Source: a virus
Taxonomy: Duplodnaviria > Caudoviricetes
Length of the DNA stretch: 58,244 nt
Virus record (IMG/VR): IMGVR_UViG_3300025896_000032
Coordinates: 1 to 58,244 of that record
Direction: 5' to 3' (one strand)
Within the stretch, counting starts at the first letter, position 1; the number at the start of each line of letters is the position of its first letter. Shown piece by piece: positions 12,015 to 38,497 of this stretch. The notes under the pieces were generated by a model. The model was not told the origin of the DNA, did no database searches, and saw only the letters and a list, made by a program, of their open reading frames with translations. The translations under genes and the position numbers were made by a program.

Positions 12015-14432
12015 TCAGGTAAGGCCGGTGCCGCTGATCAACCATTCCGTTGAGGTAACTTTGATTGCAGTCGCAATGCCGTTAGCAGCCAGAGTCCGCG
12101 ACCCAGTTGTTCCTGCACCAGCAAGACGCATCGTGTCTGTCGTAATCGCAATCGTGATAACGCCACCAGCGTTTTGATTCACAAATGTAATGGCTGTCCC
12201 AACGACGTAGGCTACTGAACTATTGGCCGGGATCGTGAACGTGCGAGCGGTTGTATCGGCGCTTGGGTGGAAAAGGTGCTTGCCACCATCAGAGAGAACA
12301 AGCGTGTATGCTGCCGACTGCGAGTTCTGCGGGATTTGCCGCATTGTTCCGATGGAATCGGAAACGGTAGTTCCAACAACAGTACTTGGCGTGGTTGCAC
12401 CCAGAGTTCCGTTGAACGCATTACCAGTGGTAAACGTTTTGTTAGTGGCGGTCTCCACACCGTTCAGCGTCATTGCCGTACCGCCGTTACCGCCGATCTG
12501 AGCGAACACATCCCAAGTTGTACCGGAGTACACGAACTGCACCGACACACCGCTAATATCTAGCGTGAGGTCCGCAGCCGTTCCGTTGATCGTGGAGCCA
12601 TTTCGCCCAACGGTAAGGTTGGTGGTACCAAAGTTGGTGGCGGCATCCGCAATGATGCACATGCTGCCAGCGGATGGCGTAATTGGCAGCGTAACCGTGA
12701 ATGTACCACCCGTGGTGTTTGCGAGCACGCCCTCAAGATTTGCAATCGTGTAGTTGGCGGTCTTGACGACGTAGGTGAGGCCGGGACCAGTTGGTCCGGT
12801 GACACCACTGCTGCCGCTAACGCCCGTGGGGCCGGTGACGCCAGTGGCTCCGGTGGGGCCTGTAACCCCAGCAACCCCAGTGGGGCCTGTAACGCCGGCT
12901 GCACCCGTGGCACCAGTCGAGCCCTGAATGCCAGTTGCTCCCGCAACACCCGTAGCGCCTTGTACGCCGGTTGCCCCAACGGGTCCTGTAACGCCAATTA
13001 CTCCGGTGGCGCCCGTAGGGCCTTGGACTCCCGTAGCGCCTGTGGGACCGGTTACCCCATCGACACCAGTGGGACCCGTGACACCAGCAACTCCGGTAGG
13101 GCCGGTTACCCCTGCTACTCCCGTGGCACCGGTAATTCCAGCCACACCGGTTGGACCAGTGACACCGGCCACACCGGTTGGCCCGGTAACTCCAGCGACA
13201 CCCGTGGCGCCAGTGGATCCCCCTACACCAGAGGCACCGCCAACACCGGTTGCACCGGTCACGCCAGCAACGCCAGTGGCTCCGCTGATGCCAGCCACAC
13301 CAGTGGCACCTGTTGCCCCTGCTGCACCTGTGGCGCCGGCGGGACCAGTCGGTCCTTGGACGCCCGATGTAATCGCCAAGAACAAATCATGGTTTGACGC
13401 AAAGTTGGTCGTTCCAGTGCCACCAGACGAATTAAGCGTACTTGGAATTACCCAATAACTGTTTGCCGCTCCGGGATTCGTGTTAGATGGCGTTGAGGAA
13501 ATCGTCCACTTTTGGAAATTAGCGCTATTGTTTTGGTCCTGAAGCGTAAAGGTTTGCCCGGTCTTCAGAAGATCCAAGAAAATATCTATGTCAGCGCCGT
13601 CGTGCGTCAGATGGCTGACGTTGATGGACGTGGCGCTAATTTGCGTAGCGTTGTTCCAAAGAACGTGCCCGTCAGTGGGATAACCCGTGGTTATACTGAC
13701 GTTAGCGCGGTACAGGAAATAGCTGGATGATGCACCCTGAGGCCCAGTCACTCCGGTGACACCCGTAGCTCCGGTGACGCCAGATACTCCGGTTGCCCCA
13801 GTGATACCAACAGCGCCGGTCGCTCCGGTCACACCAGTGACACCAGTGACTCCGGTAGGCCCGGCAACACCGGTCTGACCAAATGATCCAGTAGGCCCCG
13901 TAGCCCCAACAACGCCCGTGGCGCCAGTTGGACCGGTAACGCCGGTCGCTCCCGTAACCCCCGCAACACCGGTAGCTCCGGTAATTCCGATGGCTCCGGT
14001 TGGACCAGCAACGCCGGTGGGACCCGTAACGCCCGTGGCACCAGCAACGCCAGTCGCACCAGTAGCACCGATAACGCCAGTCGAGCCAGTCGATCCGGTG
14101 GCGCCCGTTTGTCCCGTAGCCCCAGTGGGGCCGGTAATGCCTTGTGGTCCAGTGGATCCCGTTGACCCATTTGGTCCGGTGGGACCGCTAGGACCTTGAA
14201 TGCCAGTTGGCCCAATGGGGCCAGTAGGGCCAGTCGTTCCCTGAGGCCCGGTTGCTCCCGTGGGGCCGCTAGGACCTTGGATTCCGGTTGGACCCGTCGT
14301 TGCCTGCGGACCCGTAGCCCCAGTCGCCCCGATAGGCCCAGTTGGGCCGGATGCACCCGTTGGTCCGATCAGATCAGGGAAAATGACGTCAAAATTGGGG
14401 GGAGTACACCAATTGGGCGGGTTGCAAGACAT
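12015..14432 (-). CDS. Long collagen-like fibre protein
   Basis: Two G-X-T tracts; T4 gp9/gp10-like docking domain (FTVTLP..PSAG...[13 protein letters not shown]); start chosen at ATG 14432. Confidence 0.85.
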
Positions 14433-14437
14433 GGCCC

Positions 14438-14466
14438 AGATTAACAAAAGGAACCGGGCATGGCAA
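14438..14466 (-). promoter_or_regulatory. sigma70-like promoter, leaderless geometry
   Basis: TTGCCA-17nt-(TG.)TAATCT-5nt-ATG. Confidence 0.65.
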
Positions 14467-14794
14467 CATGCTTGAGTCCACCAACATGCAGTCCGTCGCT
14501 CAATGATAGCAGGGGGCCCGGAGGCCTGCGGCGATTAGGGAAGTGTATCCCCATCATCTTTTTGGTGGCCTTGTTGAACTTGATCTTATTGGCGGGCGCG
14601 TTCTTGAACAGATCCACGTCAAAATCCATCCCGTAGAAATTAACGATATCCTTTAACCACTCTTCACTGCACCCATCTTCTACGGCGCGAAGAAGGATCG
14701 CCCAAGCCAGACCATGCTCTCCCGGGGTAACGTAATCGGTGGAAAATCGGCACCTTCTACCCTCATCAGTATAGTAGCCAGTCTTGGCATTCAT
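14441..14794 (-). CDS. Hypothetical protein
   Basis: 117-aa ORF divergent from the capsid gene. Confidence 0.6.
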
Positions 14795-14828
14795 TTCATA
14801 TCAAACCATCAATAGACCATACGAACTA

Positions 14829-14858
14829 TTGACAAGAAGAAACAATATTTGCTAAAGT
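14829..14858 (+). promoter_or_regulatory. Capsid gene promoter
   Basis: TTGACA-18nt-(TG.)TAAAGT. Confidence 0.7.
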
Positions 14859-15012: not shown

Positions 15013-16269
15013 ATGCCTATCACTCCCACTCCAGCGTATGTGGATCTTCCTACCGCGACTCAGATTTTCGCGGCCGATCCCACCCGCATTATTGCTCCTA
15101 TTGGCGCCGCTCTTGCGGCCAATGTTCCGTACCTTTCCGTTCTTCCCCAGAAGACCTTTGAGGCGCAGATCTCCCCTGTTCACGTCAGCGTCGTGCAAGG
15201 CCGTACGGTCCCCGGCACCTCGATGACGTTCCCCGACTTTCTGACGATGGGCAACGTTACGTCCATTGGCGCGAATGCCGGTAACAGCAAGTCTGGTACC
15301 TCCAGCTACCAGTACGTCGCCAAGATCTATCAGGATTTCTCTGATGTGATCGCGCTCAACGTTGCGTACAACGCCTTCAAGGAGTCCCTGTCGACGCAGC
15401 TTCAGGCTGTTCAGCAGTACTCCACGGAGCTTATCAACGCGGACACCCGCGCTGAAATCTTCACCCGTTCCGGTGTGAAGGCCGTCGTGCAGAGCAACGC
15501 TGCGTTCTACTCCACCATTAGTGGTGGTCAGCAGCAGATCGACACGCCGCTCCCGAATACCTATTCGGATGCGCGTCTCACGTTTGAGCTGTTGCACCAC
15601 TACGCCCGTTACCTCACGCAGGATCTTCTTGCGTGGAAGTTCGGTGAGGGCGAGGCGGCTCATCTGCGATTCATCGGTTCCGCCGATATCCTTGAGTACC
15701 TCCGTCAGGATCTTGGCGCCAGCGCTGGTCCCGGTGGCTATGTTCAGTTCCCGAATGGCCCTCTGGCTGTCGGTAGCATGAGCGGCGACAGTGAGTCGAA
15801 ACGCGGCAACCTGAGCTACATCTTCAAGGCTCTGTTCCGTGGTATCGACTTCGGCGAGGATCAACGCCCACTGCGTTACAACTGGTCGGGTTCCGCCTAC
15901 GTTGCCGTTGAGCCATACGTCTCTGCTGCTGGTTCTACCGGCAACATCGAAGTGGTGAATCCGGGCTGGCTCGTTGCCTCCCATGAAGTTGGCTTCCTGT
16001 TCGCTCGTAATTCGTTTGAGCGTCAGGTTCCTGCCAAGTGGGTTGGCGAAGGTCGGATGAAGTGGGCCCAGCAGATGTTTGGTGGCGAAGTTATCTTCGG
16101 CGCCTACCCAGACATGGTGCAGAACTTCTTCCGGAACTATGGTGTTCTGGCCTTCCAGATTGGTCGCGCTTATCGCCCGATCTACCCATGGTTCGTGCTG
16201 CCAATCCTGTACAAACGCTGCGTTGAGAACGACAACGTTTCTACCTGCTCTGGCGTGTCCGGTGTCTAA
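15013..16269 (+). CDS. Major capsid protein
   Basis: 418 aa with strong C/T-ending codon bias; own promoter and terminator; no other capsid candidate in the genome (inference). Confidence 0.75.
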   Translation: MPITPTPAYVDLPTATQIFAADPTRIIAPIGAALAANVPYLSVLPQKTFEAQISPVHVSVVQGRTVPGTSMTFPDFLTMGNVTSIGANAGNSKSGTSSYQYVAKIYQDFSDVIALNVAYNAFKESLSTQLQAVQQYSTELINADTRAEIFTRSGVKAVVQSNAAFYSTISGGQQQIDTPLPNTYSDARLTFELLHHYARYLTQDLLAWKFGEGEAAHLRFIGSADILEYLRQDLGASAGPGGYVQFPNGPLAVGSMSGDSESKRGNLSYIFKALFRGIDFGEDQRPLRYNWSGSAYVAVEPYVSAAGSTGNIEVVNPGWLVASHEVGFLFARNSFERQVPAKWVGEGRMKWAQQMFGGEVIFGAYPDMVQNFFRNYGVLAFQIGRAYRPIYPWFVLPILYKRCVENDNVSTCSGVSGV

Positions 16270-16293
16270 TCGATACCCCGCTTAAGCAATAAC

Positions 16294-16329: not shown

Positions 16330-17508
16330 TCATTGATGGACCATGTGCCCACGAATGTGGTACCATCCGGATCCTTCTGGATCGCTACCGCCACGCCGCA
16401 GATCGGAAATCTGCTGGAAGATGGCATCATAGCGTTTAGCGCACGTCTCCATGGAGTATAGTCTCTGGGCGCGTTCGCTGGTCACCTTGCGGCTTAATTT
16501 GCCTTGGTTCACCATCTTGATGGCGTCCAGCCAGTCGCCAAGGGTATGGCACCGATACCCCGTTACCCCGTGGTCAATGGTTTCCGAGAAGCATCCGTAG
16601 CTTGAGGCCAATAATGGGGCGCCACAGAGCTGCCCCTCAACCCCGGCACCGCCAAAGGGCTCAATGTACCGGGTGGGCATCAAGAGGGCCTTGGCTCTAC
16701 CCACAACGTCAGCACGGGCCTTTCCGGTTACCGGGCCACGATACTTGATCCTCTTGTGCTTCCATGGGGTTGCGTCACCTTGACCAACAAGGTGGATTTC
16801 CTCGTCAATGTAGTCCGCGATGACCTTTAGGGTATCCAGACCCTTCTCGGAGCAGATTCGCCCGTAATAGAGGAAGTATTCGCCCTTTTCGGCCCTGTAC
16901 GGCCAGTCCTCAAGGTCAAAGTAGTTGGGTACTACCCACATGTAGTCCTTCCCGCCCTCACCCACGATGGGTAGCTGATCGCTATTGTAGCAGACGCGGC
17001 CATTGCCGTCGAAATGGAGCTTCTTTCCAAGATGGTAGTGCATCCAAGCGTAGGACTCAAAGATCCGGAAGGCGCCAAAGTCCGAGTCGGGATAGCCAAT
17101 GCCGGTTTCAACGTGATGCTGGTCAGGGAATAGCTTGACGACATCAGCGTGGGATCGACCAAAGGGATGGCAGATGATATCGCCCGGGGCGACGTGCTTC
17201 CTGAGTTCTTCCTTAAGGCGATTGTCGAATTTGATCCAATGGGGGGTCCCGAGAACCGCAGAGTTACCGTGGAATTGGGCGCCCTCATGTTTGCCGGCCG
17301 ACAACTCCAGTTCTTCCTTGGTCAGGATCATCACCTTTACCTGAGCCTCAGACTCCGACTCCCCATTGGAGTACTCAACGACGCGATAGCCAAGAGGCTG
17401 CATCATCTTGGGGATCCGGAACGCCTTTTGCGTGAAGGCACAGTGATGGTAGTCACTGTTCATCAGCGTATGGAACGGCGCGATTACATGGAGGGTCGGT
17501 TTGGTCAT
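16330..17508 (-). CDS. GT-B (GT4-like) glycosyltransferase
   Basis: YYGRICSEKG and EPFGGAGVE (EX7E) motifs. Confidence 0.9.
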   Translation of the reverse strand: MTKPTLHVIAPFHTLMNSDYHHCAFTQKAFRIPKMMQPLGYRVVEYSNGESESEAQVKVMILTKEELELSAGKHEGAQFHGNSAVLGTPHWIKFDNRLKEELRKHVAPGDIICHPFGRSHADVVKLFPDQHHVETGIGYPDSDFGAFRIFESYAWMHYHLGKKLHFDGNGRVCYNSDQLPIVGEGGKDYMWVVPNYFDLEDWPYRAEKGEYFLYYGRICSEKGLDTLKVIADYIDEEIHLVGQGDATPWKHKRIKYRGPVTGKARADVVGRAKALLMPTRYIEPFGGAGVEGQLCGAPLLASSYGCFSETIDHGVTGYRCHTLGDWLDAIKMVNQGKLSRKVTSERAQRLYSMETCAKRYDAIFQQISDLRRGGSDPEGSGWYHIRGHMVHQ

Positions 17509-18068
17509 TGGCGTTGGAAGATCATCACGTTGTTAACGAGCCAGCCCATGTGGTAACCGGAGCGCATGTAATCAACAAAGTGGGAGGTAGCGGCTGGGTT
17601 GTACCCGAATCCATACCAATTCAGCCTGTTGCACCAGTACGATGGTGGCTGGCAGTTGATATGGCCGTCGCCACCCTGCCCGGGTTGGGCTGCGCTAAAG
17701 ATCACGGTGGTCGGCTCACAGTTGCGAATGTAGCGGATGTAGTCCCATGAGTGATCCTCCGGGATGTGCTCCCCTACTTCAAGGGATAGCACGGTGTGGG
17801 CGCAAAACGATGGGCAAAGGGACCTGTTGACGATGTCCTCGATATGGCAATTCGCTTCCTTTGCCGCACGGGGGTCAATGTCTACTCCATTGGCCTCAAT
17901 ATCCAGATGGCGCATCGCCTTGACGTAGATCCCGGGACCGCAACCAACGTCCAGCACGTTCCTGAATCCAGACTCTTTCAGGTACCGGGCGATCCGCTCC
18001 GCCTGAGGCGTTTCCTCACTGATAATCCCATCGTAGTTGCATGGGTGATCAATGGAGCTGGTGGTCAT
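17505..18068 (-). CDS. Class I SAM-dependent methyltransferase
   Basis: VLDVGCGPG, SLEVGEHI and GQGGDGHIN motifs; coupled to the GT gene. Confidence 0.9.
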   Translation of the reverse strand: MTTSSIDHPCNYDGIISEETPQAERIARYLKESGFRNVLDVGCGPGIYVKAMRHLDIEANGVDIDPRAAKEANCHIEDIVNRSLCPSFCAHTVLSLEVGEHIPEDHSWDYIRYIRNCEPTTVIFSAAQPGQGGDGHINCQPPSYWCNRLNWYGFGYNPAATSHFVDYMRSGYHMGWLVNNVMIFQRQ

Positions 18069-18115: not shown

Positions 18116-18319
18116 ATGAAAGTCACCAGCAGCAATATCAGCGATATCGCCTACGACGAGAAATCGCAGACCATGAGCATCACGTTCCATGACGGAGCCA
18201 TGTACAACTACATGAGTGTGCCGATTGGGGTGTACGACCGATTACTGACCTCTGGAAGCAAGGGCAGCTACTTCTCGCAGTACATCAAGGGGCGATTCGC
18301 TAGCACCAAGGTAGCCTAG
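18116..18319 (+). CDS. KTSC domain protein
   Basis: SSNISDIAYD...F.DG.MY.Y..VP......L..S.SKGSYF. Confidence 0.9.
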   Translation: MKVTSSNISDIAYDEKSQTMSITFHDGAMYNYMSVPIGVYDRLLTSGSKGSYFSQYIKGRFASTKVA

Positions 18320-21300
18320 GGCTTGATGGACTTGGCGTAAATCACGCTGCCGTGGTCGGTGTTGTCGAATTGGCTCAACCCGCGAACATCGATACCCTCA
18401 TACCCAAGTGCCTTTACGACTCTGGTTGAGGCGGAATCGATGTATTGGCTGGTATGCCTAGCCTCATACTTCAAGAGGTCTTCCCGGGTTTCTTTTGCTG
18501 ATTTTGCGATGATTCCCTCGACATCTGCTTGGCTGAACTTGGATTGCATACCCATTTCAAGCCAAATGATAAAAGAGGCATTCGATGCAGGCAAACTTGG
18601 ATTATCTACCATTCCGTTGATGTATTTCAGCGAAGAGAAAGTATTGGCAGCAGATTCGTTATCGCTCGGCTTGTAGAGCTTGTACTTGGAAGCATCGAAC
18701 CTGTGAACCGGACGATCACTTCGACCGGTACTGCTTTTTCCTTTTGACGTATAGTAAACGCCGGTGCCGGCATGCCCCGTTCCTCTGCCACCCGACATTC
18801 TTCCAGCGGTAGTGTCTCTACCGTACCCCAAATCCCCAGAGCTATACCCCGCGTTCTCTTCAAGAATGGGTTCTCGCACTAGGATCATGTCGGATCCCTT
18901 TGCTTCCTGCACGAATCCCTTTTTCTTGTACCATTCAGCGAGTTGCTTAGTGGTCAAGGCGGTCTTGTCGCCCTTTTTGGCGAATTCGGTCATGCGTTGG
19001 GGCTCCAGTTTTAGGGTAATGCCCTTTTCGTCGGCGGACGCGATAAGGGCATCCATGGCTTTCGATGCCAAACCCTGACCGCGAGAACCGGCTTCAGTAA
19101 CAATCCCGGCTATCGTCAGTCGGTTCGGGCTGACATCCGATCTATCGGCATACGAAACGCCATATCGGGCGACATATATGTCGGTCGCATCCAATGCGAT
19201 CTTAACCTTACCGTCCTTGGACACCAGCGTAGGGTAGGTTGATCCACCAAGCGATAGCGCTTCCGGGTTCTTCTCTAGATTCACCGTCGAATTCTGCCTA
19301 TCGAATGCCTTTTTGGAGGCATTGCTTGATTCGATTCTATCAATCGGATGCGATGGCTCTTCAGCTACCTTTATTTCGTTTTTTTTTGAGCCTTCCGCTG
19401 GTTTGCTTTCAACCCCAAAGTTGGCGGCTTCCTCTGGGGTCATGGTATGCGAAGCCAATTCCTCCGGGGTAAGCTTGGGGACGGATCGAGCGCTGGGCTT
19501 GATGGGCTTGATTCCTTTGCCAAAGCTTTTTTCCACAATCTCCGCGAATGCCTCGATGTGGGACTTATCGTTGATTATCTTGAATTGGCCATCGCCGGGA
19601 ACCTCAACGGTTACCTTTGGTGCGAACTTGGACAGTTCACCGATTTGCTTTTTCGCATTGGTAACCCTGCGGGCGGCGTCTACACCGCCAATGTTCTCGT
19701 ACCGCTTGATGGTATCAAGGTGATCGGCGTATTCCTTGGCCGTCTCGGCCTTGGGGAAGGCTGGGATTTCAGGGGCGGATTCACCAAGCGTGCTCAGGGC
19801 ATTTCCCAAGTATTGCTTCTGGGCATCCAGTTGCTTCTTGGTGGCGAGCTGGGAAACCTGATTGTCGAGCTTGACGGTCGGGGCTGCGGTTTTTCCGTTA
19901 TCGGTCTTTACGATGACGGGCTCCTTTTCGGCGGCGCTGACTTTCACGGGCGCTTGCTTCGCCCGATAACCATTCGCCTCAAGCATGCCTTTTAGCTCAG
20001 GGCCAATGTCTTCTGGACCCATGTCCCTGTCCTTGGAAATGCGCTGCAATTCAGCCAAATCCTTCTCGCTGATCAGGCCGTTGGCTTTGCTCTTATTGGC
20101 AATAGCCATGATTGTGCTCTTCTTGACCTCTGGATCAAGAAGGGCTTCGTCAACCTTCTCCCATGCCTTATCGTGGGGCGAACTCTCTTCCACTGGCTCT
20201 TCCACGACCGCTTTCTTGGCCGGTTTGGCTGGTTCTACGGGCTTTGGGGCGGGTTCGGGGGCTGGCGGTGCCTCTTGGGCCGCGAGGGCCTTGGCGGGTG
20301 CCTTCTTGGGGGCCGCGAACTTGCCAGCGGCCGGGGCTGGCGTGGGTGGCGTGGGCTTCTTGACGGCGGGAGCGGCTGGGGGCTCTTCCGGGGGTGGGGT
20401 AGCTGAGGGGGGCTTGGCAGCTTCAGCCGCAAGCTTGACCCTGAGCGCTTCGGCATCAGCCGGTGAACGGCGTGCCCGCTCGTCAGCCTCAAGGGCGGTA
20501 ATAACGTCATCAGCCCTCTTTGCCGTAGCGGCTTTACTTTCCGCTTCCGAGATGGCTTCACCAGCAGTCTTTTGATCGGCTGCTTCCTTGTTACCCAAGA
20601 CGTCCGACACGGCCTGATCTTCGGCGAGTTTAGCCCTCAGGGCCTCGGCATCGGCTGGTGAGCTACGCGCCCGCTCATCGTCAGCAAAGGCCGACAATAG
20701 GTCTTGGGCTCGCTCAACATGGGCTTGTTCCTTTGCGCTAAGGTCAGCCCTATTTGCGGCTAGCCTCTCTTCGATATTGGCGAGCCAATCCTTGGCAACA
20801 CTGAGATCCGTTGGCTTTGACGCAATGCGGTCATCAAGGTACTTGGCGAACTCTTCGGGGGAATACCTTTCCCGAATTCTGGCCAGAGCTTGGCGAGAGA
20901 TCCCATGGTTCTCCATTACCTGATCCATCTTGCCCTGAATGGAAGACTCTTGAGCAGAGAGCTTGGATTGCTCCGTGCTCTTCTTGGACTCATCAAGCTG
21001 GGCGATAATGCTCAGGGCATTCTCGTTCTTCTTGGCCTCATCCTGAGCGGCCTTCTCATCGGCTACGCGCTTGGCCTCTTCGGCGGATTTCTTCGCTTCG
21101 GCCTTGGCGCCGGATTCTGCCTCAAGACGATCATTGATGTCCTTGAGTTCCTTGAGGAATTTCTCACGTTCCGCCCCAAGACTCTTCGTCAGGCTTTCCT
21201 GCATGATCCTAGGGGCGTTCGCCAATTCCGCGCTCGTTGGCGTTATGATCTGGGACTGGTTCTCTAGGTACTGCTGTGACTCTGACTTAACCGGTTCGGG

Positions 21301-23343: not shown

Positions 23344-23348
23344 AAGTT

Positions 23349-25010
23349 TTATTTGGAAGGCGGCTTCCCGGCGGATTGCAATGCTTCCCAAGCCTTTTGG
23401 GCTTCAGCCTTAGTTCCGTTGGGGTTATCATGTCTCCATAATGCTACAAAATCATTAACATTTGCTCCGGAAAAGCCCGGAGAATTCTGACTAACGTAAG
23501 CCGCATAGCTATCTTTGGGTCCCAATTTGTAATTCCTTGCCGCGATCAATTCGACGTCTTGCGCCAAGGCTCCCTGATCAAGGGCGTAACCCATGGCGCC
23601 ACTTTGCTCCAAGGTTTTATTCATCAAGCTAGCCATGTAATCCATCTTCATGGCAATTACCCTTGGAGTATCCGTCCTTCGTGGCTTGGCGGAAATAAGG
23701 AGATCCTTAATGCCTTGGTAGGCGCGAATGTTCTTTAGGCCACCCGTAGACTTTTCGACCAATGACGTCATTGCCGAGTCAAAGTCCTGCGCCCCATCAA
23801 GCCCAAGTACCGCCAGCAAGTTTGCGGGCAGGAATGCGTTCAATGGCCCCGGGGGTACGCTGCTACTTTTTAAGTTTTCAAATGCCCGAGCGGCGTTATT
23901 CAGGGCGGCGCTTTGACCGGAAAAGTTGTTGGTTACATCCAGAACATCGGAAGCCAGTTTCGCCCTGTCGGCCTGTTGAACTTTGTTTAGCGGTACTCCT
24001 CTGGTTTTTGCGGCTGCGGCGTTAATTTCTGACATAGCCACAGCATTATGGTCAGTCGCGTCGACCGGATTAGGAAGCCAAGACACCGCTACCTTGGGCT
24101 TTTCCGGTGGTGGCTGTGCTACCGGCGGAACGGCTACTACCTCAGTGGCAGGTGTTGCTGGAGCAACGGGAGTCGCAACCGGAGAAGCGGAATTAGCGCT
24201 TGGGATTGATGCGAGAATAGATGATGGGCCACCCGTGAATTTAGACGGTAGACCCACTCCGCCAAGGGAAGCCAATGGCTTTACCCCCGATGGGGGTGGC
24301 TCACCAAATTCAGAAGAATCGGGAGGGCCTTGGTCTACGCGCTTAACGATTTTTCCCGGCATTGGAACCGGACGTCCAAGGGGATCAACTCCCATTCTTG
24401 TCCACGTCTGCCAAGTTGAGGTTCCATCGCTAAAGGGTGCGCCTTCTGGAACATACGTTACGCCCCGTACGGTTCTTGTCGCAAGAGTAGAAGCCATTCC
24501 GGCGCCACCAATAGGAGTAACCTTGCGATCGTTATCAACGGATACGGGCACCCTAACTCCATTTCCCATATCAATATACTGAATGTTAAGCCCAGTTGGG
24601 CTTTCGGCCGCTGTTTTGGCGAGTGTAAGTGCCGATTGCTGATTGTAACCCGCCAATTCACCTGCTCCCGGGAGCTGCGCTCCACGTTGAGCGGACTCTA
24701 TCTGTGATTGAAGCATACCGGATTGGCTCGCGGCAATTGCTGCCCGTGCTTCCGCCTGAGCTGCCGGCGACACGAACGATGACAGTGCCTGCGCCCTTAC
24801 TGCGGCGTTCTGGGCCTCTAGGCGCTTCTTTTGGGCGTCGGCGATCAATGCCCTTGTCTCTGGCCCGATCAAGCTAGCCGCCTGCACGTTCTTCATCGCA
24901 TTGGCCTGAGCCAATTGTGACTGCGAGACATCGTATCTACCGACGTTGGTCGGGATCGACAGGGTCTCTGGTAGGGCGGAAAGCTGGAAGCCTGCGGTGG
25001 GGGAAGGCAT
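23349..25010 (-). CDS. Putative ejection protein
   Basis: A/Q-rich helical N-terminus; position between the small and large ejection genes. Confidence 0.6.
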   Translation of the reverse strand: MPSPTAGFQLSALPETLSIPTNVGRYDVSQSQLAQANAMKNVQAASLIGPETRALIADAQKKRLEAQNAAVRAQALSSFVSPAAQAEARAAIAASQSGMLQSQIESAQRGAQLPGAGELAGYNQQSALTLAKTAAESPTGLNIQYIDMGNGVRVPVSVDNDRKVTPIGGAGMASTLATRTVRGVTYVPEGAPFSDGTSTWQTWTRMGVDPLGRPVPMPGKIVKRVDQGPPDSSEFGEPPPSGVKPLASLGGVGLPSKFTGGPSSILASIPSANSASPVATPVAPATPATEVVAVPPVAQPPPEKPKVAVSWLPNPVDATDHNAVAMSEINAAAAKTRGVPLNKVQQADRAKLASDVLDVTNNFSGQSAALNNAARAFENLKSSSVPPGPLNAFLPANLLAVLGLDGAQDFDSAMTSLVEKSTGGLKNIRAYQGIKDLLISAKPRRTDTPRVIAMKMDYMASLMNKTLEQSGAMGYALDQGALAQDVELIAARNYKLGPKDSYAAYVSQNSPGFSGANVNDFVALWRHDNPNGTKAEAQKAWEALQSAGKPPSK

Positions 25011-30526: not shown

Positions 30527-31255
30527 TCAGTTATTGCTACCGTTGATGAATCCCGGCGAAGTTACGCTGTAAGGAGGAACGATAAACGCAGAAAGCTGGG
30601 CGCCGAGCAAGAAAACGTCGCTACCCGTTCCGCAATAGATGTTTTCGCCCTGAACCACAGTTCCATAAAACCAGCAGCCATAGCTTTGGGCGGTGCCGTA
30701 ATTAGCGGTTCCAACATTTGTCGCAACTCGACCCCACCAGAGATTCTGAATCAACGCAGCCGTGTTGATATCCGTGCCTGTAGAAATATAAATTTGGCCA
30801 TTAAGATATGCCGCGTACCCGTTAAGATTACCGGCCCACCCAAGCTGCATTTCCAAGTGGAATAGGTAGGTTCCGCTAGCAAATCCAATCGCACCAAAGT
30901 TAATGGCTCTGGCGTCCGAAAGGTTCGTTAGCCTTTGAGCCGGCTGACTGCCGGGGTCCCAAATGGCACCAGTGAAGAAGGCGACCATCGATTGCACGCC
31001 CGTTGGGCCTTGAACGCCAGTTGATCCCTGAGGACCGGTAATGCCAATTGTGCCCTGAGGACCGGTAACGCCCTGCGGGCCAGTTGCGCCGCTAGCACCT
31101 CGAAAACCCTGCGCCCCCTGCGGGCCGGTCGCACCCGTGGGACCCTGTGGTCCAGCCACTATGGTGGTTACTGGTACTGGGGGTGAGCAAAATGGGTCTG
31201 GGCCACAACAAGATCCGGTGGGACCGGTAGCAGATTGGCATGGGGTGCAAGACAT
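30527..31255 (-). CDS. Collagen-like protein with Cys-rich N-terminus and beta-sandwich C-terminus
   Basis: MSCTPC...CC...CSPP followed by about 18 GXY triplets. Confidence 0.8.
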
Positions 31256-31291: not shown

Positions 31292-31783
31292 TTATAGCGA
31301 TGACATGGCGTAGACATCGCCCACGGAATTGCCGGTGGCATAGGCATGAACAATCATGGATTGCCCGGAAGACAGGGATGACGGGAATGATCCGCCCGAC
31401 GGGATCCAAGCGGGCCACGTCACGTTGAGTGGGCCGGCGGTGGTGTTGCGGATAAGCGCGATCATCTCCCCGCCATCGAATGCCACTGCGACCGTGAATA
31501 CGGTATCGATGGTGATCGGGATTAGATTAAGTGTGCTTACATCAAAACGAAGTTGGATTGCTCCGCCGGCAGGGTAACCGGTTTCCGTAAAGAGGGTCCT
31601 GACATGCGCTCCCAGTATCTGAATGTTGCCAATGTACCCACCGGATATGGAGACGTTATTTGCATTCTGGGATGCCATCGTGCCAATTGATGGCATGGGT
31701 CCGGTGGGACCGGTGGCGCCCGTGGCACCAACTGGACCACTGACAAGTACCGGTACTGGTACGGGAGGTGTGCAAATGCTCAT
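31292..31783 (-). CDS. Short collagen-like fibre protein
   Basis: MSICTPP, 5 GXY triplets, GTMASQNANNVSISGG and a WP..W domain. Confidence 0.75.
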   Translation of the reverse strand: MSICTPPVPVPVLVSGPVGATGATGPTGPMPSIGTMASQNANNVSISGGYIGNIQILGAHVRTLFTETGYPAGGAIQLRFDVSTLNLIPITIDTVFTVAVAFDGGEMIALIRNTTAGPLNVTWPAWIPSGGSFPSSLSSGQSMIVHAYATGNSVGDVYAMSSL

Positions 31784-31790: not shown

Positions 31791-33968
31791 TTACAAATTG
31801 TTGGCGAACAAATCGCCTGTTCCTAAATCGGTATATGCCGCCGTCGATCCTTGCCGCGTGTTGCCGACCGCCAGCGAATAGCTGCAACCGGCATCCATTC
31901 CAATAGCCGTGTCAGTCGAAGCCAAATTGTAGAACGTGTTGCCCGTGCAAGTTCCGCCATTCACGGAATTGAACAAAATTCCGTTCACTACAACCGCTCC
32001 ACCCTGACCGCCCAAAAAACACCCAGTAACGCTCACGCCAGTAGCGTTCTTGACGTTTATAACGTAACCCGCCGCCCCACCGTTCGCACTCGCATTGATC
32101 GCACTCACCGTCGTGCTATACACCCCGTCCGTGTAAACCGCCGAATACTTTGCGCCGTAATCGCCACCAATCACGTTACAGACACTTCCTGCGCTGCTAT
32201 TCACGAAATACACCCCGTAATCCACCACGATCATCGTGCAGTCGATCACCTCAAGCCCTTCCAGCCGGTTAGACAAGCTCCCGGTCCCGTCAGCCTGAAT
32301 CCCATACGTCCCACCCTGCATCCAGCAATTCGTCACCTTAAAGCCGCTCGTCGCACCGTTCGCGCCCCTAATGCGGATACTAGCCGACGAACAGTTGAAC
32401 TGGCAATTGTCCACATAGACGTTGATCCAGTTGTATAGGTCCAAACCGATGGCAAAATATGTGCTGCCATTTGTGGACTGAAAAAACGCCACCCGACTGA
32501 TCCGCGTCCCCTGCAACTGCGCATCCGTCCCAGAACTCGTCAGAGTCAGCCCGTTGTAGCCAGCCACCGAATTAGCCACCAACGAGAAGTCCGTAAAGGT
32601 GCATGGCGCGTCACTTGTATATGTCCCGCCACCAGCCGCCCGCGTCACCGACATTCCCCCATTCGTCGAAGCGTCGGAAAAGTAAAGTTGGCTCACCCCA
32701 ATGCCATCCCCACGCATACTGAACGCCTGCCCGTTGTTGTTGAGCGCCACCGGCAACGCCGCACTCGACTTGTAAATGCCCATCGGAAGATACAGGCAAA
32801 ACGGTTTCGTCGTCGCTATCCCAGCCGCAATCGCCGCCGCAATCGCCGCGTAGTCGTCCGTGCTCCCGTTCCCCACCGCACCCCAATCCTTCACGTTGAA
32901 TACGTCAGGACCGTACCATCCCACATCTGCGGAAGTGGTACTGTTTTTGGCGAGTCTGGCATACTTTACCCCGCCGCTCGGTACGCCGGATCCTGCCGGA
33001 CCGGTCGGGCCGGTGGGGCCGGTGGACCCCGATGCGCCAGTAGGGCCGGTGGGGCCGACGGAACCGCCGGAGGCGCCGTAGAATGCCGCAATGATGCTGG
33101 CCTCGGTCGTTCCGCCGCAAGTTAGCTCAACACGGATGGACTCGCCGATGGCAAGACTGGTTGGGAGAGCCCCGGACGCAAGCTGCCAAGCCGCCGGCCA
33201 CGAAAGGCTGATGATGGACCCGGCCGTATTCGTCAGATCTAGCGTCTGCATGCGCCCTCGGACCATTCCGTAGGAGCTGGTGACGGACATATTTACGCCC
33301 ACGTCAATTTGGGCGTAAGAGCCGAGATCGAAACGAAGTTGAATTACGCCGCCACCGGTATACGCCACCGCGTAGCGCGTGATGCTCGTGACGTTGGAGA
33401 GAAGGTTTACCGTGGGATTCGGATAGTTACCCGTGAGATCTCCGCCGGCAGCGCCAGAAATGCTACCAGCAGGACCAGTAGCCCCAGTGACGCCGACACC
33501 CGTTGGACCTGTTACCCCGGTTACACCAGTGGAACCCGTGGCTCCGGTCGGTCCAGCAATTCCGGTTGCGCCCGTAGGGCCAGTAGAACCTACGGCTCCG
33601 GATGGACCCGTAGCACCCGATACACCAACGCCAGTGGGACCGGTCACTCCAGTTACGCCAGTGGAACCCGTGGCTCCTTGGACGCTAGCTGGGCCGGGGG
33701 CTCCGGTAGGGCCGGCTGGACCCGTGGACCCAGTAACGCCATAGGGTCCAGTAGCGCCCGTCACGCCCGCTCCGGTGGCCCCAGTGGCTCCCGGACCACC
33801 CGCTGGACCTGTTGGTCCCGTTTCCCCGCCACCCCCACCCCCACCGCTACCCGCTGGTCCGGCTGGACCTTGGAGACCCTGAGGACCAGTGGCGCCAGTA
33901 GCCCCTAGCGTTCCGTCCGGGGTAACCGTAATGGGTTGTACGACGTAATTAAGGGGATTATCGGCCAT
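31791..33968 (-). CDS. Collagen-like fibre with pectate-lyase-like beta-helix (depolymerase-type receptor-binding protein)
   Basis: GXT tracts; [24 protein letters not shown]...LYLPMGIY. Confidence 0.85.
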
Positions 33969-33976: not shown

Positions 33977-34339
33977 CTAGCTAGTAAAGGTAATGGTTAC
34001 GTCTACATTGGGGCTGTAACCTATTGCGCCAATGGAGTCAGTAACTTTGAAGCAAAATGTTGCATTATATTCGGATGGCGCGGCCACAGCCGTAGCCTCA
34101 AATGAGGCGCTATCGGTAAACAAATTAGCGGTAATGTCCATGTCTCCTGAGACGTAGTTTATTTCGTATGAATACGGGGATAGACCACCGTGAGCATAAG
34201 CAGTCACCGGAGATGTCGTAAGAGTCGGAAACAAAACGAAATTACCGGATACGGTGATGGGATTTGGGCCTGCGGTTACAGTTACGGGAGAACCCGATGA
34301 CGAAAGACTGGCAATTAACGCAACGGTGAACGCTTTCAT
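33977..34339 (-). CDS. Small Ig-like protein, putative fibre-tip adhesin
   Basis: [10 protein letters not shown]...FKVTDS; starts 1 nt after the fibre gene stop. Confidence 0.6.
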
Positions 34340-34340
34340 G

Positions 34341-35207
34341 CTACGCAATCCATGCCGCGACGATACCGCTGTCGACGCCAGTCCATGCCATGATGGCTAG
34401 TTGGGCTGTCTTACCTGCACCGAGAGTGGTGGGGGCGCCGACCGCCGATGGAAGCCAAGTCCACCCAGCCGGGAATGATACGTTTCGGGTGGATGCACCG
34501 GCAGTGACGCAGACCAGAATCGATTGGCCCTGCTGAATGTTGCTGGTGGCGAAAACAGTATCACCCAGCATGGTGAGTAATTGGGCGTCTCCCTGAGTAA
34601 AATCGATAGTGGATGTACCGCCATACGATACTGTTCCAACAATTGCCGGGAATCGCCTGACAGTAACGCTACTTGGTCCCGAAATATCGTTGGCGAGACT
34701 AAACTGGTACGTTCCAGCAACAGAAGTAATCCCGATTTGACCCGATACACCGGTCATCAATGGGGCGGGACCGGTTTGTCCGGTTGGACCCTGAGCACCC
34801 GTAGCCCCAGCGGGACCACCAGATGGGCCGGTGGCACCAGCCGGACCCGATGAACCAGTGGCACCAAAATCTCCAGTATTTCCCTGTGGACCCAATGGAC
34901 CGGTAGCTCCCTGAATCCCGGTAGGGCCAACAGAGCCAGTGGCTCCGATCACGCCGATATCGCCTTGGGGGCCAGAGATGCCTTGGGCTCCCTGAGGTCC
35001 AGTAGGGCCCATTACGCCAGTAGCACCCGTTGCTCCTTGGGCTCCGGTAGCTCCCGTGGCTCCAGTGGCTCCCGTTGGACCAGAGGGGCCGCTAGGGCCA
35101 TTAGCGGGGCCGGTAGGGCCAAGCGGACCAGTTGCACCAGTAGGGCCTACAACGCCCTTGAATAGGTACGCCACTGTCGGGGGAATCATGCAACTGGAGT
35201 CGGCCAT
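34341..35207 (-). CDS. Collagen-like fibre protein
   Basis: About 42 GXY triplets; C-terminal IDFTQG...FPAGWTW domain. Confidence 0.85.
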
Positions 35208-35213
35208 GGGATT

Positions 35214-35242
35214 ATGATAGGGTTTCAAATAGGCTGGCGCAA
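35214..35242 (-). promoter_or_regulatory. sigma70-like promoter, leaderless geometry
   Basis: TTGCGC-17nt-TATCAT-6nt-ATG. Confidence 0.65.
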
Positions 35243-35275
35243 CCTCATTAGAACGTACACATTTACGCAACCAAG

Positions 35276-36157
35276 ATGAAAGTTGAAATTTTGCTGGTAA
35301 CTTATCGTAAGGATCTGGAATTCACTTCTTACGCCCTACAATCAATTGCGAAATTTGGTTCTGGGTTTTCCGGCATAACGCTAGTTGTTCCGCATCAAGA
35401 TAAAGAGGCCTTTAAGCCACTTGCCGACAGGTACGGGTGCTCCCTAAGGAATTGCATCGAAGTCCCTAACAAGGGGTTCTTGGGCCACATGGCTTCAAAG
35501 TGTCAGGGCGATATCTGGTGCCCCAAGGGTACCGACATTGTGTGCCATATCGATTCCGACTGTATTTTCGGGGAACCGTTCACGCCGGCAACATTCATGG
35601 ACGGTGAAAAGCCCCTTTTGGTGCGCGAGCATTACGATGACTTCATCCAGTACCAAAGCCGTTACGGGTGGAAGAAGAATTCCCTTCATGCCCTTGGGTT
35701 TGATTGCGAATGGGAGACCATGGTTCGGCATCCTTCGCTTTACCATGTAGACATGTACCGGCGCCTCAGGAACCACATCGAGGATCTTCACGGATACCCG
35801 TTCGATCAATACGTACTGCTTCAGCGTAACGAATTCCCGCAAACGTTTTCGGAATTCCCGACCATGGGGGCATTTTTGCTGCAACACGACTCCAGCAAAT
35901 ATCGCATCGTTACCTGCGTCCACACACCCGGGAAATACTGGGCTGACGAAAAATGGTTAAAGCTCGGGATTGAACCGGTCGCAAGAGACCCAAGCACTGG
36001 AATCCCTACCACAAAAGATCATCCCATGAGGTTCCTGTGGCACCTCGATGATGGCTCGGTTGAGCAACGCCCACTCATCAACCCTGTTCGCTATTTCTGG
36101 TCGAAGAAGGGCGTTACCCCTGAATACCGAAAGCAGATCGAGGCCATCCTCACTTGA
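35276..36157 (+). CDS. Putative GT-A glycosyltransferase
   Basis: ILLVTYRKD, the DxD motif HIDSD, and FSEF. Confidence 0.65.
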
Positions 36158-37541
36158 GGAACTGCTGAATGATGGTGTTCTTGTTAAAGGAAGCACCTGC
36201 GGACTTGCAGTCCTTGGCAGAGAAGTGGATTAACTTTGCTTGAGCCCAAAGGTTGGAGTTCCAGCCCTTAACCACATCGTGCTGCTTGAGCCAGAATGTG
36301 TCGGTACACTTCTTCAAGATATCTTGGTCACTGGTAATGTTCTGGTATGCCGAAAAGTCGTACTTAACGATCTCTTTGATGAAAATCTTGAGCGCCCTAT
36401 TGTCGGATGAAACGGCGGATAGACGGTTGGTCTGAAGCGCGTTGAACCCATCGGCCTTCGGAATGTCCTCATGTGCCATGCTTCTGTTCGGGAACACGTC
36501 ATACTCCACGAATAAGCCACCACCAACGGCGGAAAACGCCAGCCACCGATAAAGGTTGGCCTTAGCAACGCGGCTAGGGGCGACGGATGGCATTGAGGCT
36601 ATCTTTTCCTTCAGCTCTGCATACCCATCGCACTTGCTGGCATCCCACTCTTCAAGCACCACTGGATTGTAACCAGCGTTGATCCAAGCTGCCTTCCACA
36701 TCGCAATAGTTGCTTTTTGGCAGGCTGGATCAGTCTTTAGGCATTGGTCGTAATAGGTGCATACCGTGCGAATGTTCACGACGTTACCATCATTGCCGAC
36801 ATTCCCGAGGTACCGGTTCCTGACGGCCATAATCGCGCTGACGTCTTTTACGCCGTGAAGGTAAACGGGGAATTCACCATTCTTGCGAAGGCTGAACAAA
36901 TCTTCTTCGGTAATCGTCTTACGATTAAAATCCAAAAGCATGAAGTTCGTGTCCTTGGACAGCGGCATCACGCGATTTCGATGATAAATATCGTAGGCGA
37001 TGTTGGTGGGGCCACCAATGATATTCATGGCACCAGCTTTATGCCAAAAGTCGGTGGCATAGATGGATGCGCCGTTCAAATGGTTAAAATTGGCCTGATT
37101 GTGAATATGGCCGGTAGCGGACTTACCCTCGTTGTACGCCTCATCGTAAGCCTGAAGGATTCCCTTCAGCCAATCACGCGATAACGGACAGCAATCCGGC
37201 TCCATGTTAAGGAACGCAAAGTACTTCGTCTGCCAGTCTCGATTCCCCATCGTCTCCAGCAAATCGTAAAACATCTCATTGGGGCCATACGGGTACCCAA
37301 TGGCGTTGCGGCGCCGGCAGACATGGTTATGCACGTCGCCAAACTTGATCTTGAGCTTATCGATCAAAAAGGTCGGAACGACATTTGCATCCCACCGGCG
37401 GTAAAACATGATGTCCACCTTGTCGTTGAACTTTGGCTCAAGGTCGCAAATCAAGTTCGCGAGGTTGATGGCCATTTCCCTGTCACCGTTCCAGTAGTTG
37501 ATAACTACGAGAAATTTGCGTGGCTTTTTTTCGTTATTCAT
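36150..37541 (-). CDS. Putative two-domain glycosyltransferase
   Basis: Domain 1 FLNMEPDCCPL...HLNG; domain 2 W..AGYNP...RWLAF...GGLFVEYDV...SDQ (GT32-like). Confidence 0.65.
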   Translation of the reverse strand: MNNEKKPRKFLVVINYWNGDREMAINLANLICDLEPKFNDKVDIMFYRRWDANVVPTFLIDKLKIKFGDVHNHVCRRRNAIGYPYGPNEMFYDLLETMGNRDWQTKYFAFLNMEPDCCPLSRDWLKGILQAYDEAYNEGKSATGHIHNQANFNHLNGASIYATDFWHKAGAMNIIGGPTNIAYDIYHRNRVMPLSKDTNFMLLDFNRKTITEEDLFSLRKNGEFPVYLHGVKDVSAIMAVRNRYLGNVGNDGNVVNIRTVCTYYDQCLKTDPACQKATIAMWKAAWINAGYNPVVLEEWDASKCDGYAELKEKIASMPSVAPSRVAKANLYRWLAFSAVGGGLFVEYDVFPNRSMAHEDIPKADGFNALQTNRLSAVSSDNRALKIFIKEIVKYDFSAYQNITSDQDILKKCTDTFWLKQHDVVKGWNSNLWAQAKLIHFSAKDCKSAGASFNKNTIIQQFLK

Positions 37542-38497
37542 CGGGCGGCGGGACGGCGAGTTGTATTGTGGTAGGAGTAACCAATGGTGCCCATGTGAAG
37601 GGGCATAACTGACATATCAACGTAGGCTTGATGGCCAGCGTTTCTGGCCCTTGTGCAGAATGAAACGTCTTCCGACAAATCGCCTATGTAATTGAAGAAG
37701 CCATAGCTGTAACCAAAACGGTTCGTGAACGCTGGATCCTTGATGGTGACATCCGGCTGCTTTGAGATGATGTCATTAAAGACGCTGCGATGGACCAACG
37801 CGCACCCAAATCCGACCCAGCCCGTTGAGTTGACAACGTTTCGTGGACCGGAATGGGCAGAGTCGTTGGTGATCGTTGACTGGTAGGCTTCTTGGAACTG
37901 AGCGGTGCCACCGGGCTGACGTCCAAAATAGCATCCACCGATCAAGGTCCTTCCCGTCTGCATCAACTTGGCAATCGGGTTGATGTTGATGAATTGCGGG
38001 GGGAACGAGGGATTGTCAGACAGGGCTCGAAAGTACGGTACGTCGCCATGGGGCAACACGGTGTCGTCATCGATCCAGAAGCTGTATTCCGCACCACCGT
38101 CAAGGAACGCCTGAGCGCATCGATTCCTAGCCCTGACATACGAGTTGTCGGACACAGTGGTAAACTGCATCTTGTCGCGCTCGTAGAGGGCCGTAATGGA
38201 CTTCAGGACGCCAATGTGGATCGGCCTGACGGAAGGCATCAGAATATGGACCTTCTTGCCTGCGGGAAACTCGTAAGGGGCAATTGTCACCGACTGTTCC
38301 TGCGCGGGTTCGGGTGTCGGTGCTGACGGAAAAAACAACTGCGGGTCGGAGTTGATGATCTTCTGTAGCGTATCCAAGGTCGGGCTTTTGCCCCTGCCCC
38401 AAGAGTTAACGGCTTCAGCAGTCTTTCCCGTCACTTCCATGGCCTTTTCGACTCCGTGTTTTTCAACGAAATCTAAGACCGTTTTTGAGATATCCAT
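37538..38497 (-). CDS. HTH-fused GT2-like glycosyltransferase
   Basis: Cro-like N-terminus; RARN, WIDDD, GFGCALV and SEDVSFC motifs. Confidence 0.8.
   Translation of the reverse strand: MDISKTVLDFVEKHGVEKAMEVTGKTAEAVNSWGRGKSPTLDTLQKIINSDPQLFFPSAPTPEPAQEQSVTIAPYEFPAGKKVHILMPSVRPIHIGVLKSITALYERDKMQFTTVSDNSYVRARNRCAQAFLDGGAEYSFWIDDDTVLPHGDVPYFRALSDNPSFPPQFININPIAKLMQTGRTLIGGCYFGRQPGGTAQFQEAYQSTITNDSAHSGPRNVVNSTGWVGFGCALVHRSVFNDIISKQPDVTIKDPAFTNRFGYSYGFFNYIGDLSEDVSFCTRARNAGHQAYVDMSVMPLHMGTIGYSYHNTTRRPAAR

Follow-up and report, generated by a model that had tools for sequence, protein, structure and literature searches.

The DNA window analyzed here, 58,244 bases long, is the entire IMG/VR virus record IMGVR_UViG_3300025896_000032. 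Its structural region contains three candidate nucleotide-sugar transferase genes (p319, p463, and p293), lying between a putative scaffolding protein gene and a group of collagen-like fibre genes, as well as a GT4-family glycosyltransferase gene and a small S-adenosylmethionine (SAM)-dependent methyltransferase gene next to p418, a putative major capsid protein gene (Table 1). An initial annotation had interpreted this set as a toolkit for glycosylating Thr-rich collagen fibres on the virion. A virion target, rather than DNA, is retained here on the basis of gene context, but the comparison across genomes does not support collagen as the specific acceptor. Instead, the explanation that we favor, with about even confidence, is that the phage encodes glycosylation of its own virion proteins, in which the putative capsid protein would be modified chiefly at its C-terminal tail and the collagen fibres might be modified as well.

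Open reading frames lie at the positions given in the initial annotation, and its count of four glycosyltransferase (GT) genes with about five GT domains holds, with one domain each in p319, p293, and GT4 and two in p463. Three of these genes are not recognizable by family profiles: p319, p463, and p293 have no Pfam or NCBIfam match above cut-off and no tblastn match in 50,697 phage records, and profile-profile comparison revealed no relation among the three families. Assignment by fold, which the initial annotation had suggested, was carried out and resolves what Pfam missed. On structural models, p319 is a GT-A protein, p463 consists of two GT-A domains, and p293 is Stealth-like, all three being nucleotide-sugar transferases by predicted fold.

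The fold of p319 was taken from an Atlas model, whose neighbors belong to GT2/Anp1 clusters with template modeling (TM) scores of 0.55-0.58 by query and 0.83-0.85 by target, and AlphaFold2 (AF2) models were made for p463 and p293. Alignments of the three families were built from metagenomic homologues. Among 27 homologues of p319, D143, D145, E276-D277, and H301 are invariant and D144 is kept in at least 90%; in p463, E114, D116, and D348 are invariant. By their position in the sequence, we assign a putative DXD role to the invariant acidic residues of both proteins. Searched as profiles against PDB sequences, p319 gave a weak match to Mnn9 (GT62) over the DXD region (E = 0.19), nothing was found for p463, and p293 was likewise unrecognized. 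The p319 protein also matches phrog_1574 (1.7e-10). Its residues 1-75 (38275-38497) form a separate helix-turn-helix (HTH)-like domain with a weak match to lambda CII (E = 0.59), which could serve in procapsid docking or regulation.

The AF2 model of p463 (predicted local distance difference test score [pLDDT], 87.9) gave 307 Foldseek matches in the PDB at E of ≤1e-3, the best being two-domain GT-A enzymes, namely, COLGALT1 (4.6e-10), chondroitin synthase, LARGE1, and Mimivirus R699. Taken separately in VIA-align, its N domain aligned with WbbM, LgtC, GlyE, and B3GalT5 (Z, 13.8-14.2), and its C domain aligned with the capsid-glycosylating GT of the chlorella virus PBCV-1 (2p72; Z, 12.8; root mean square deviation [rmsd], 3.2; 169 residues aligned). 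In wider relatives, each of the two domains is a separate gene. The p293 model (pLDDT, 95.5) aligned in VIA-align with eight Stealth entries, namely, GlcNAc-1-phosphotransferases and CpsY (Z, 15.7-16.4; rmsd, 3.1-3.3; 215-227 residues aligned), and the next family reached a Z of only 12.6. Its invariant residues are H91, D93, and D95, and its Atlas neighbors are DUF6492 clusters. The window copy of p293 itself matches DUF6492 below cut-off (E = 0.0027), and a relative passes it (locus L095; 1.3e-9, 38 bits) and also matches Stealth_CR2 at 4.5e-6 (27.3 bits, below the cut-off of 39.4). No paper on DUF6492 was found in the open-access literature.

The GT4 protein passes the Glycos_transf_1 cut-off (38.8 versus 26.4 bits), and its C-terminal half matches solved GT-B enzymes with E values down to 2.8e-12. 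It is the only GT of the set with relatives in cultured phages: tblastn matches were found in 52 phage records, 51 of which are Synechococcus phages, and the best match, gp122 of S-CBWM1 (46% identity), lies beside a tail-fibre gene. Judged by sequence similarity, these relatives hint that the host, or else the source of the gene, is cyanobacterial, but they do not assign a host. The description of the neighboring gene as a SAM methyltransferase was confirmed: Methyltransf_11 is passed narrowly (22.3 versus 21.2 bits), with other methyltransferase families below their cut-offs, and the Gly-rich SAM-binding motif VLDVGCGPG is present in the translation. That a methyl group caps a glycan chain is a conjecture. 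None of the five enzymes (the GTs and the methyltransferase) has a hydrophobic 19-residue window above 1.2, and all five look soluble.

The p319 gene starts 5 nucleotides (nt) past the stop of the putative scaffold gene and shares its last 4 nt with the beginning of p463; the transferase genes are therefore predicted to be translationally coupled to the scaffold gene. To place this arrangement in a wider context, the p319 alignment was used to search IMG/VR, and at least 434 encoding stretches were found. Eighty of these were kept, two of which are close relatives of the window, and the other 78 loci were analyzed. A portal gene lies upstream of the p319-like gene in 74/78 loci, a p418-like gene lies downstream in 63/78, and both are found in 59/78; a p463-like gene is present in 63/78 and usually encodes a single domain, which may be of N type or of C type. 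The commonest arrangement is scaffold, transferases, and capsid gene, and the transferases keep this head-module position while portal identity falls to ~23-28% across the clade.

The distance between p319-like and capsid genes ranges from 0.25 to 6.5 kb. Pfam was run on 124 representatives of the 181 open reading frames (ORFs) found in this gap. Among these representatives were NAD-dependent epimerases/dehydratases (17/124, five of them GDP-mannose 4,6-dehydratases with E values of 1e-124 to 1e-138), homing endonucleases (7/124), SAM methyltransferases (5/124), further GT or Stealth/DUF6492 proteins (3/124), polysaccharide pyruvyl transferases (2/124), and proteins resembling FGE-sulfatase (formylglycine-generating enzyme) (2/124), together with one sulfotransferase match and one DUF7893 match below threshold. 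The remaining 86/124 have no Pfam match and include p463-like domains, which are invisible to Pfam. Taken by its predicted gene content, this slot is a glycan-synthesis island inside the head module. We found no description of the clade, or of a glycosylation island between scaffold and capsid genes, in the open-access literature, most subscription journals being outside the scope of that search.

Two kinds of island genes deserve separate mention. The FGE-sulfatase-like matches (5e-23 and 3e-21) and the subthreshold sulfotransferase gene (L093, 11389-12411; L097, 11494-12477; L061, 11483-12061) are sequence-level hints of sulfated or otherwise unusual modifications in some relatives. The homing endonucleases are of the Endonuclease VII, HNH, GIY-YIG, and T5orf172 types and occur in loci L037, L039, L041, L045, L056, L065, and L104.

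The putative capsid protein p418 is the most conserved protein among the close relatives (83-91% identity). The names "portal," "scaffold," and "capsid" are used here by gene order, size, and conservation; for the capsid and scaffold genes named in the initial annotation, this contextual support stands, but a family match is lacking for both. Specifically, p418 has no Pfam, PHROG, or PDB-sequence match, nor do a 24-member alignment of its family or 26 distant members, and the putative scaffold has no Pfam or PHROG family match. At its C terminus, p418 carries Cys403-x8-Cys412 followed by a Ser/Gly-rich tail. Both C403 and C412 are invariant in 24 aligned family members, and the tail after them is variable. 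The family has 384 representatives at E of ≤1e-3 among 1.84 billion proteins, and 78 of 89 full-length representatives have the Cys pair near the end. In 48 parsed proteins, Ser and Thr make up 34.6% of the tails versus 12.5% of the bodies, and all 33 distinct tails exceed their own bodies (33/33); the pattern used for parsing missed 11/59 family proteins that visibly have the same feature.

We asked whether this tail and the transferases occur together, using loci picked by capsid similarity alone, blind to the transferases, and four transferase-domain profiles. The sample comprised 31 distinct capsid sequences, each with at least 5 kb upstream. The Cys pair was accompanied by a transferase in the locus for 22/31 sequences and not for 2/31; a long Ser/Thr-rich tail lacking the Cys pair was accompanied by a transferase for 2/31; and neither an elaborated tail nor a transferase was found for 5/31. 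In the two Cys-pair loci without a transferase, both GT genes are located elsewhere in their records. Among the tail-less cases, one genome (72 kb, 100% complete) has neither GT gene, and in a second lineage (locus L127, 7972-8658) the p319 position next to the scaffold gene is taken by a gene for a 228-amino-acid (aa) protein, which has retained the N-terminal HTH-like part of p319 (hhalign probability, 94.7%) but not the transferase domain. Single-protein queries for further tail-less capsid lineages returned none or one standard tail-bearing locus. We propose the capsid tail as the main acceptor because it covaries with the presence of transferases. The asymmetry with the fibres separates the two candidate acceptors, since transferases occur without collagen in 4/24 genomes (see below) and never without a tail in this sample.

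The immediate relatives of the window show how the arrangement differs in its own lineage. Eight IMG/VR contigs share the order terminase, portal, scaffold, p319, p463, inverted p293, and collagen genes; it is complete in seven of the eight, the p319 position being off the contig end in one, and p293 is inverted in all eight. GT4 is found in seven of the eight records (70-80% identity) with p418 adjacent, and the methyltransferase lies beside it in six of those seven (54-63% identity). The putative portal is 74-76% identical in close relatives, and the putative scaffold is 54-60% identical in them and ~21-40% identical in the wider clade. The transferase, methyltransferase, and p418 genes are thus a conserved core of this lineage, and since all of these relatives carry both transferases and collagen genes, they cannot test a coupling between the two. 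Both p418 and p293 are single inverted genes within a minus-strand structural module. Because p418-like genes in the wider clade are codirectional with the transferases and directly follow them, the capsid gene appears to have been relocated and inverted in the lineage of the window.

TABLE 1 Features of the window discussed in the text
Feature	Position	Strand	Description
p319	37538..38497	-	N-terminal HTH-like domain (~75 aa) and GT-A domain (residues ~78-319)
p463	36150..37541	-	Two tandem GT-A domains (~5-250, ~255-461)
p293	35276..36157	+	Predicted DUF6492/Stealth-like sugar-1-phosphate transferase, GT-A type fold; single inverted gene
GT4-family (GT-B) glycosyltransferase	16330..17508	-	Pfam Glycos_transf_1, 9.1e-10; phrog_3408, 4.2e-50
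Small class I SAM-dependent methyltransferase	17505..18068	-	187 aa; 4-nt overlap with the start of GT4
p418, putative major capsid protein	15013..16269	+	Named by position, size, and conservation; single inverted gene
Putative scaffolding protein	38503..39963	-	486 aa, charged, helical; named by position between portal-like and GT genes
Putative portal	40247..42673	-	808 aa; named by position downstream of terminase large subunit
Collagen-like fibre protein	12015..14447	-	810 aa; PF01391, 1.1e-57, 8 stretches; 135 triplets, 86 with Thr at Y
Collagen-like protein	30527..31255	-	242 aa; PF01391, 2.3e-9; 18 triplets, 7 with Thr and 8 with Gln at Y
Protein with short G-X-Y stretch	31292..31783	-	163 aa; 5 triplets; no Pfam match
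Collagen-like fibre/spike protein	31791..33968	-	725 aa; PF01391, 2.1e-11; 53 triplets, 29 with Thr at Y
Collagen-like protein	34341..35270	-	309 aa; PF01391, 1e-15; 43 triplets, 19 with Thr at Y; divergently oriented from p293

Based on these patterns, we hypothesize that late in infection the soluble cytoplasmic transferases would draw on nucleotide sugars supplied by the host or, in relatives, by the phage, and would assemble a glycan on the C terminus of the capsid subunit, where the Cys-x8-Cys loop and the variable Ser/Thr-rich stretch after it would be exposed. Peptides are routinely displayed at the C terminus of the T7 capsid protein, which would fit a surface-exposed tail. Initiation would fall to p319 or to one of the p463 domains and chain extension to the remaining domains, with p293 attaching a sugar through a phosphodiester link; the part left for GT4 and the methyltransferase would be to finish the chain or to modify a different acceptor, for example, the fibres. 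The glycan may accordingly include a phosphodiester-linked sugar and methyl groups. The collagen fibres may be modified as well, perhaps by GT4 and the methyltransferase, although the observations can be explained without this. The benefit to the phage is a matter of speculation and could be a variable surface coat for shielding or for modulating adsorption, grazing, or stability. In a broader and more tentative scenario, about which we are more doubtful than confident, this uncultured clade coats its capsid with a virus-encoded glycan on the Cys loop and Ser/Thr tail, and the slot is a fast-evolving "serotype" island that swaps GDP-6-deoxyhexose, phospho-sugar, pyruvyl, methyl, and possibly sulfo decorations; in the lineage of the window, the capsid gene has moved and the system may extend to collagen via GT4 and the methyltransferase.

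Several points weigh against capsid-tail glycosylation. Glycosylation is here a prediction from gene content, and the capsid identity of p418 is putative, lacking Pfam, PHROG, or PDB-sequence support. The p418 tail in the window comprises only six residues (SGVSGV), and a distance of 20 kb separates the p418 gene from the GT-A genes, whose neighbors are the collagen genes. The Cys pair could stabilize the capsid with no link to glycans, and, as homing endonucleases share it, the slot between scaffold and capsid genes may simply tolerate insertions of accessory genes. The five tail-less cases represent about two independent lineages, such that Fisher's p of 0.0023 overstates the evidence, and both of these tail-less, GT-less lineages also have no collagen matches; therefore, they cannot separate a capsid target from a collagen target. 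Lastly, the nearest solved relatives of GT4 include cyanobacterial tetrahydrobiopterin glucosyltransferases, which act on a small molecule, in a match that covers the donor-binding half only.

Among the alternatives, the one that survives best, and which we nevertheless consider fairly unlikely, is that the transferases are auxiliary or host-takeover genes that remodel host lipopolysaccharide (LPS), S-layer glycan, or exopolysaccharide rather than the virion, for example, blocking superinfection or altering the lysing cell. Clusters of glycosyltransferases and sugar epimerases in cyanophages are usually read in this way, as stated in the cited part of PMC12801897, and PHROG files the GT4 family (phrog_3408) under "moron, auxiliary metabolic gene and host takeover." Polysaccharide pathways typically contain pyruvyl transferases, Stealth phosphotransferases, and pairs of GDP-mannose dehydratase and epimerase, and the island varies between relatives as host-interaction islands do. 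However, the genes are situated inside the late head operon, apparently coupled in translation to the scaffold gene, and they keep that position across a clade whose portal proteins have diverged widely. Further, neither a flippase, a polymerase, a ligase, nor another membrane protein accompanies these soluble-looking enzymes, and transferase presence tracks a feature of the putative capsid protein.

The initial reading, in which the transferases O-glycosylate Thr residues of the G-X-T tracts as in BclA, with the methyltransferase capping the chain and the fibres as the main acceptor, appears distinctly unlikely in light of the fibre genes themselves and their distribution. PF01391 is above cut-off in four of the five genes named as collagen-like, and these four stand; the fifth, encoding the 163-aa protein, has too short a G-X-Y stretch for a Pfam match and cannot be upheld on the same footing. 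For two of them, TTG starts lie upstream, at 14447 and 35270, and the ATG starts given earlier are internal. The dominance of GPT, GAT, and GVT was borne out, as GAT, GPT, and GVT are the commonest triplets, and with the five genes pooled, Thr occupies Y in 144/254 triplets and Ser occupies Y in 17/254. This Thr content favors a collagen acceptor at first sight, and glycosylation of BclA is established, according to the cited part of PMC8968730. In the same source, the share of Thr at Y is 31.6% for bacterial collagen-like proteins overall and 48.3% for those of Gram-positive bacteria, and most bacterial collagen-like proteins are described as unglycosylated. Because of that background, Thr at Y is not a special signal but the norm in prokaryotic collagens.

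Gene neighborhoods and co-occurrence likewise offer something to both sides. The three GT-A-type genes adjoin collagen genes in the window and in its eight close relatives, and the GT4 homologue of S-CBWM1 adjoins a tail-fibre gene, but the commonest arrangement in the wider clade places the GTs beside the capsid gene and not beside the fibres. The search with the collagen model covered 45/78 wider-clade records, long contigs being favored, and gave a match in 35/45 records and in 20/24 of those at least 90% complete. The initial annotation had named relatives with GTs but no collagens as a refuting result, and the other 4/24 near-complete relatives are of this kind, keeping the transferases with no PF01391 match; three of these four form one small clade. 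The two GT-less lineages also have no collagen match, in agreement with a collagen acceptor. GT4 is an accessory gene, present in 10/24 near-complete relatives, and genomes bearing it are richer in collagen matches than the others (means of 7.5 versus 2.6; raw Mann-Whitney p = 0.011). When kinship is taken into account with the portal tree, however, the comparison comes down to four independent pairs with a difference in GT4; the collagen count shifts along with GT4 in about one pair and against it in no pair. Hence, the co-occurrence of GTs and collagens foreseen in the initial annotation is visible in the raw GT4 comparison, but kinship leaves it little independent support, and a link between GT4 and the fibres is neither shown nor excluded. 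Given the Thr background, the position of the GT-A genes next to the capsid gene, and the relatives without collagen, Thr-rich collagen is not supported as the specific acceptor and is left with a possible secondary role.

The COLGALT1 match of p463 was considered separately as evidence for collagen glycosylation and was rejected, with a TM score of ~0.3, 9% identity, tied rivals, and no Lys. VIA-align places chondroitin synthase, LARGE1, and single-domain GT8 and GT31 enzymes level with COLGALT1 for p463, and the top rank of the latter, on the model, reflects a shared two-domain GT-A architecture.

Five transferase domains and the sugar-decorating enzymes exceed the usual needs of known DNA systems, which counts against a role in glycosylating phage DNA. 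That the transferases glycosylate hypermodified bases against restriction, DNA glucosylation being the classical role of phage GTs in the cited parts of PMC10202952 and PMC12619734, is highly improbable despite a MazG-like pyrophosphatase gene at 446-835, as searches of the window and of four relatives, including one that is 100% complete, detected neither a ThyA-type hydroxymethylase nor ThyX, Pfam and PHROGs detected no base-modifying enzyme among the 72 ORFs scanned, in agreement with the initial annotation, and the genes are in the structural rather than the replication module. The small remainder of our confidence beyond these four readings is left for unknowns.

The fibre genes show further features of their own. 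The 810-aa protein has two long G-X-Y tracts with a globular domain between them and a C-terminal domain, and PHROG tail-fibre families match it. The 725-aa protein ends in a pectate-lyase-like domain (Pect-lyase_RHGA_epim, 1.8e-12). The fibre proteins are mosaic: a globular domain in the C-terminal part of the 163-aa protein recurs in the 725-aa protein, where it is central (E = 1.4e-11), and in the 309-aa protein, where it is C-terminal (E = 2e-4). A short Cys/Pro-rich N terminus (e.g., CTPPVPV) opens three fibre proteins and, as far as sequence goes, suggests a common attachment site.

As for the record as a whole, a 174-nt direct repeat with 98% identity is present at both ends (1-174 and 58071-58244). 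Because both ends share this repeat, the genome is probably complete or nearly so, the repeat being a terminal repeat or a circular assembly overlap, despite the record being classed as linear and a CheckV completeness estimate of 86%. Pfam and PHROGs matches in the window include the terminase large subunit (phrog_2, 7.5e-14), a primase/helicase, exonucleases, the MazG-like pyrophosphatase, and tail-fibre modules. Neither the terminase nor the putative portal has a tblastn match among the 50,697 sequenced phage records, and the portal has no Pfam, PHROG, or PDB-sequence match. The lineage is one of uncultured tailed phages and is presumably podovirus-like, with a T7-style order of structural genes. 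A scan of positions 34000-40400 returned 2 promoter-like sites versus 4.7 expected from shuffled sequence and 9 terminator-like sites versus 6.4, so that neither kind of site exceeds the shuffled background, and a tRNA search found none.

Three other elements were noted. A 42-nt element with an internal inverted repeat occurs in two copies (54706-54747 and 54833-54874; 88% identical) in an intergenic-looking region and may be a regulatory or terminator element. A 1,691-aa protein (18316-23391) contains low-complexity stretches, some Pro/Ala rich and some charged, and shows a weak match to GNAT acetyltransferases below cut-off near residues 1418-1494; by its position, it could be an internal or ejection protein. 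A 164-aa protein (25840-26334) matches PHROG "short tail fiber/tail fiber adhesin" families (5e-35) and has weak matches to cupin and to the C-terminal part of mannose-6-phosphate isomerase below cut-off.

The long-standing assumption has been that phage virions carry no glycans, and only a few cases, described recently in mycobacteriophages, depart from it. If capsid-tail glycosylation is real, a widespread clade of environmental phages would glycosylate its own virions as a core trait of the head module, with a variable sugar chemistry of its own. Transferases between scaffold and capsid genes, combined with a Cys loop and a Ser/Thr tail, would then provide a metagenome signature for glycosylated phages. 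It would also change the annotation of glycosyltransferases in aquatic phages, which are usually read as DNA or host modifying, and would provide compact soluble protein-glycosylation enzymes and a short acceptor tag. Should this explanation be wrong, the island would still be an unusual accessory locus inside a head operon.

Among the closest known systems is that of Che8-type mycobacteriophages, which are tailed phages with their own GTs and carry glycans at the C termini of capsid and tail-tube subunits (Freeman et al. 2023, as reported in the cited parts of PMC12619734 and PMC11256854), much as the putative capsid tail with its Ser/Thr residues covaries with transferases here. The two systems differ in that no sequence relation was found by tblastn for p319, p463, p293, or the portal; in that the GT genes of Maravista, a close Che8 relative, are near the 3' end of the genome (PMC11256854, cited part), whereas those described here are inside the head module; and in that relatives here add enzymes for sugar-nucleotide synthesis and for pyruvyl, methyl, and phospho-sugar decoration, in what is here a predicted glycosylation system. 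In PBCV-1, A064R combines two rhamnosyltransferase domains for the capsid glycan with a sugar 2-O-methyltransferase that methylates the terminal sugar (PMC7826918, cited part). Virus-encoded, soluble, multidomain GT-A enzymes with a methyltransferase are common to both systems, and the C domain of p463 is structurally closest to the GT domain of A064R (12% identity), but this likeness is at the fold level only and is tied with other GT-A families. Moreover, PBCV-1 is a giant virus of eukaryotes whose double-jelly-roll capsid bears N-linked glycans. Its methyltransferase and GTs form one fused protein, unlike the methyltransferase described here, which has its own gene beside GT4.

BclA shares with the fibres a collagen-like, G-X-T-rich filament on a particle surface, and it is glycosylated (PMC8968730, cited part). 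Unlike in that system, Pfam and PHROGs detect no sugar-biosynthesis operon or sugar-nucleotide enzyme in the window; such enzymes occur here only in distant relatives, beside the capsid gene. The non-collagen domains of the fibres match phage tail-fibre and depolymerase families and not the BclA head, and the transferases persist in relatives without collagen. Human COLGALT1 (GT25), the top Foldseek match of p463, also has two tandem GT-A domains and acts on collagen, but the similarity is low, as noted above, and its acceptor, hydroxylysine, is impossible in these fibres, with Lys at X or Y in 0/254 triplets and no lysyl hydroxylase found in the window by Pfam. The Stealth hexose-1-phosphate transferases (GNPTAB, CpsY, and capsule polymerases) resemble p293 over the full length of its model, whereas p293 is a small, single-domain viral protein for which Pfam offers only DUF6492, below cut-off in the window copy, and for which the best signal among Stealth CR1-CR4 is the subthreshold Stealth_CR2 match in one relative. 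Taken together, virus-encoded virion glycosylation, the function proposed for this clade, is a kind of system already known.

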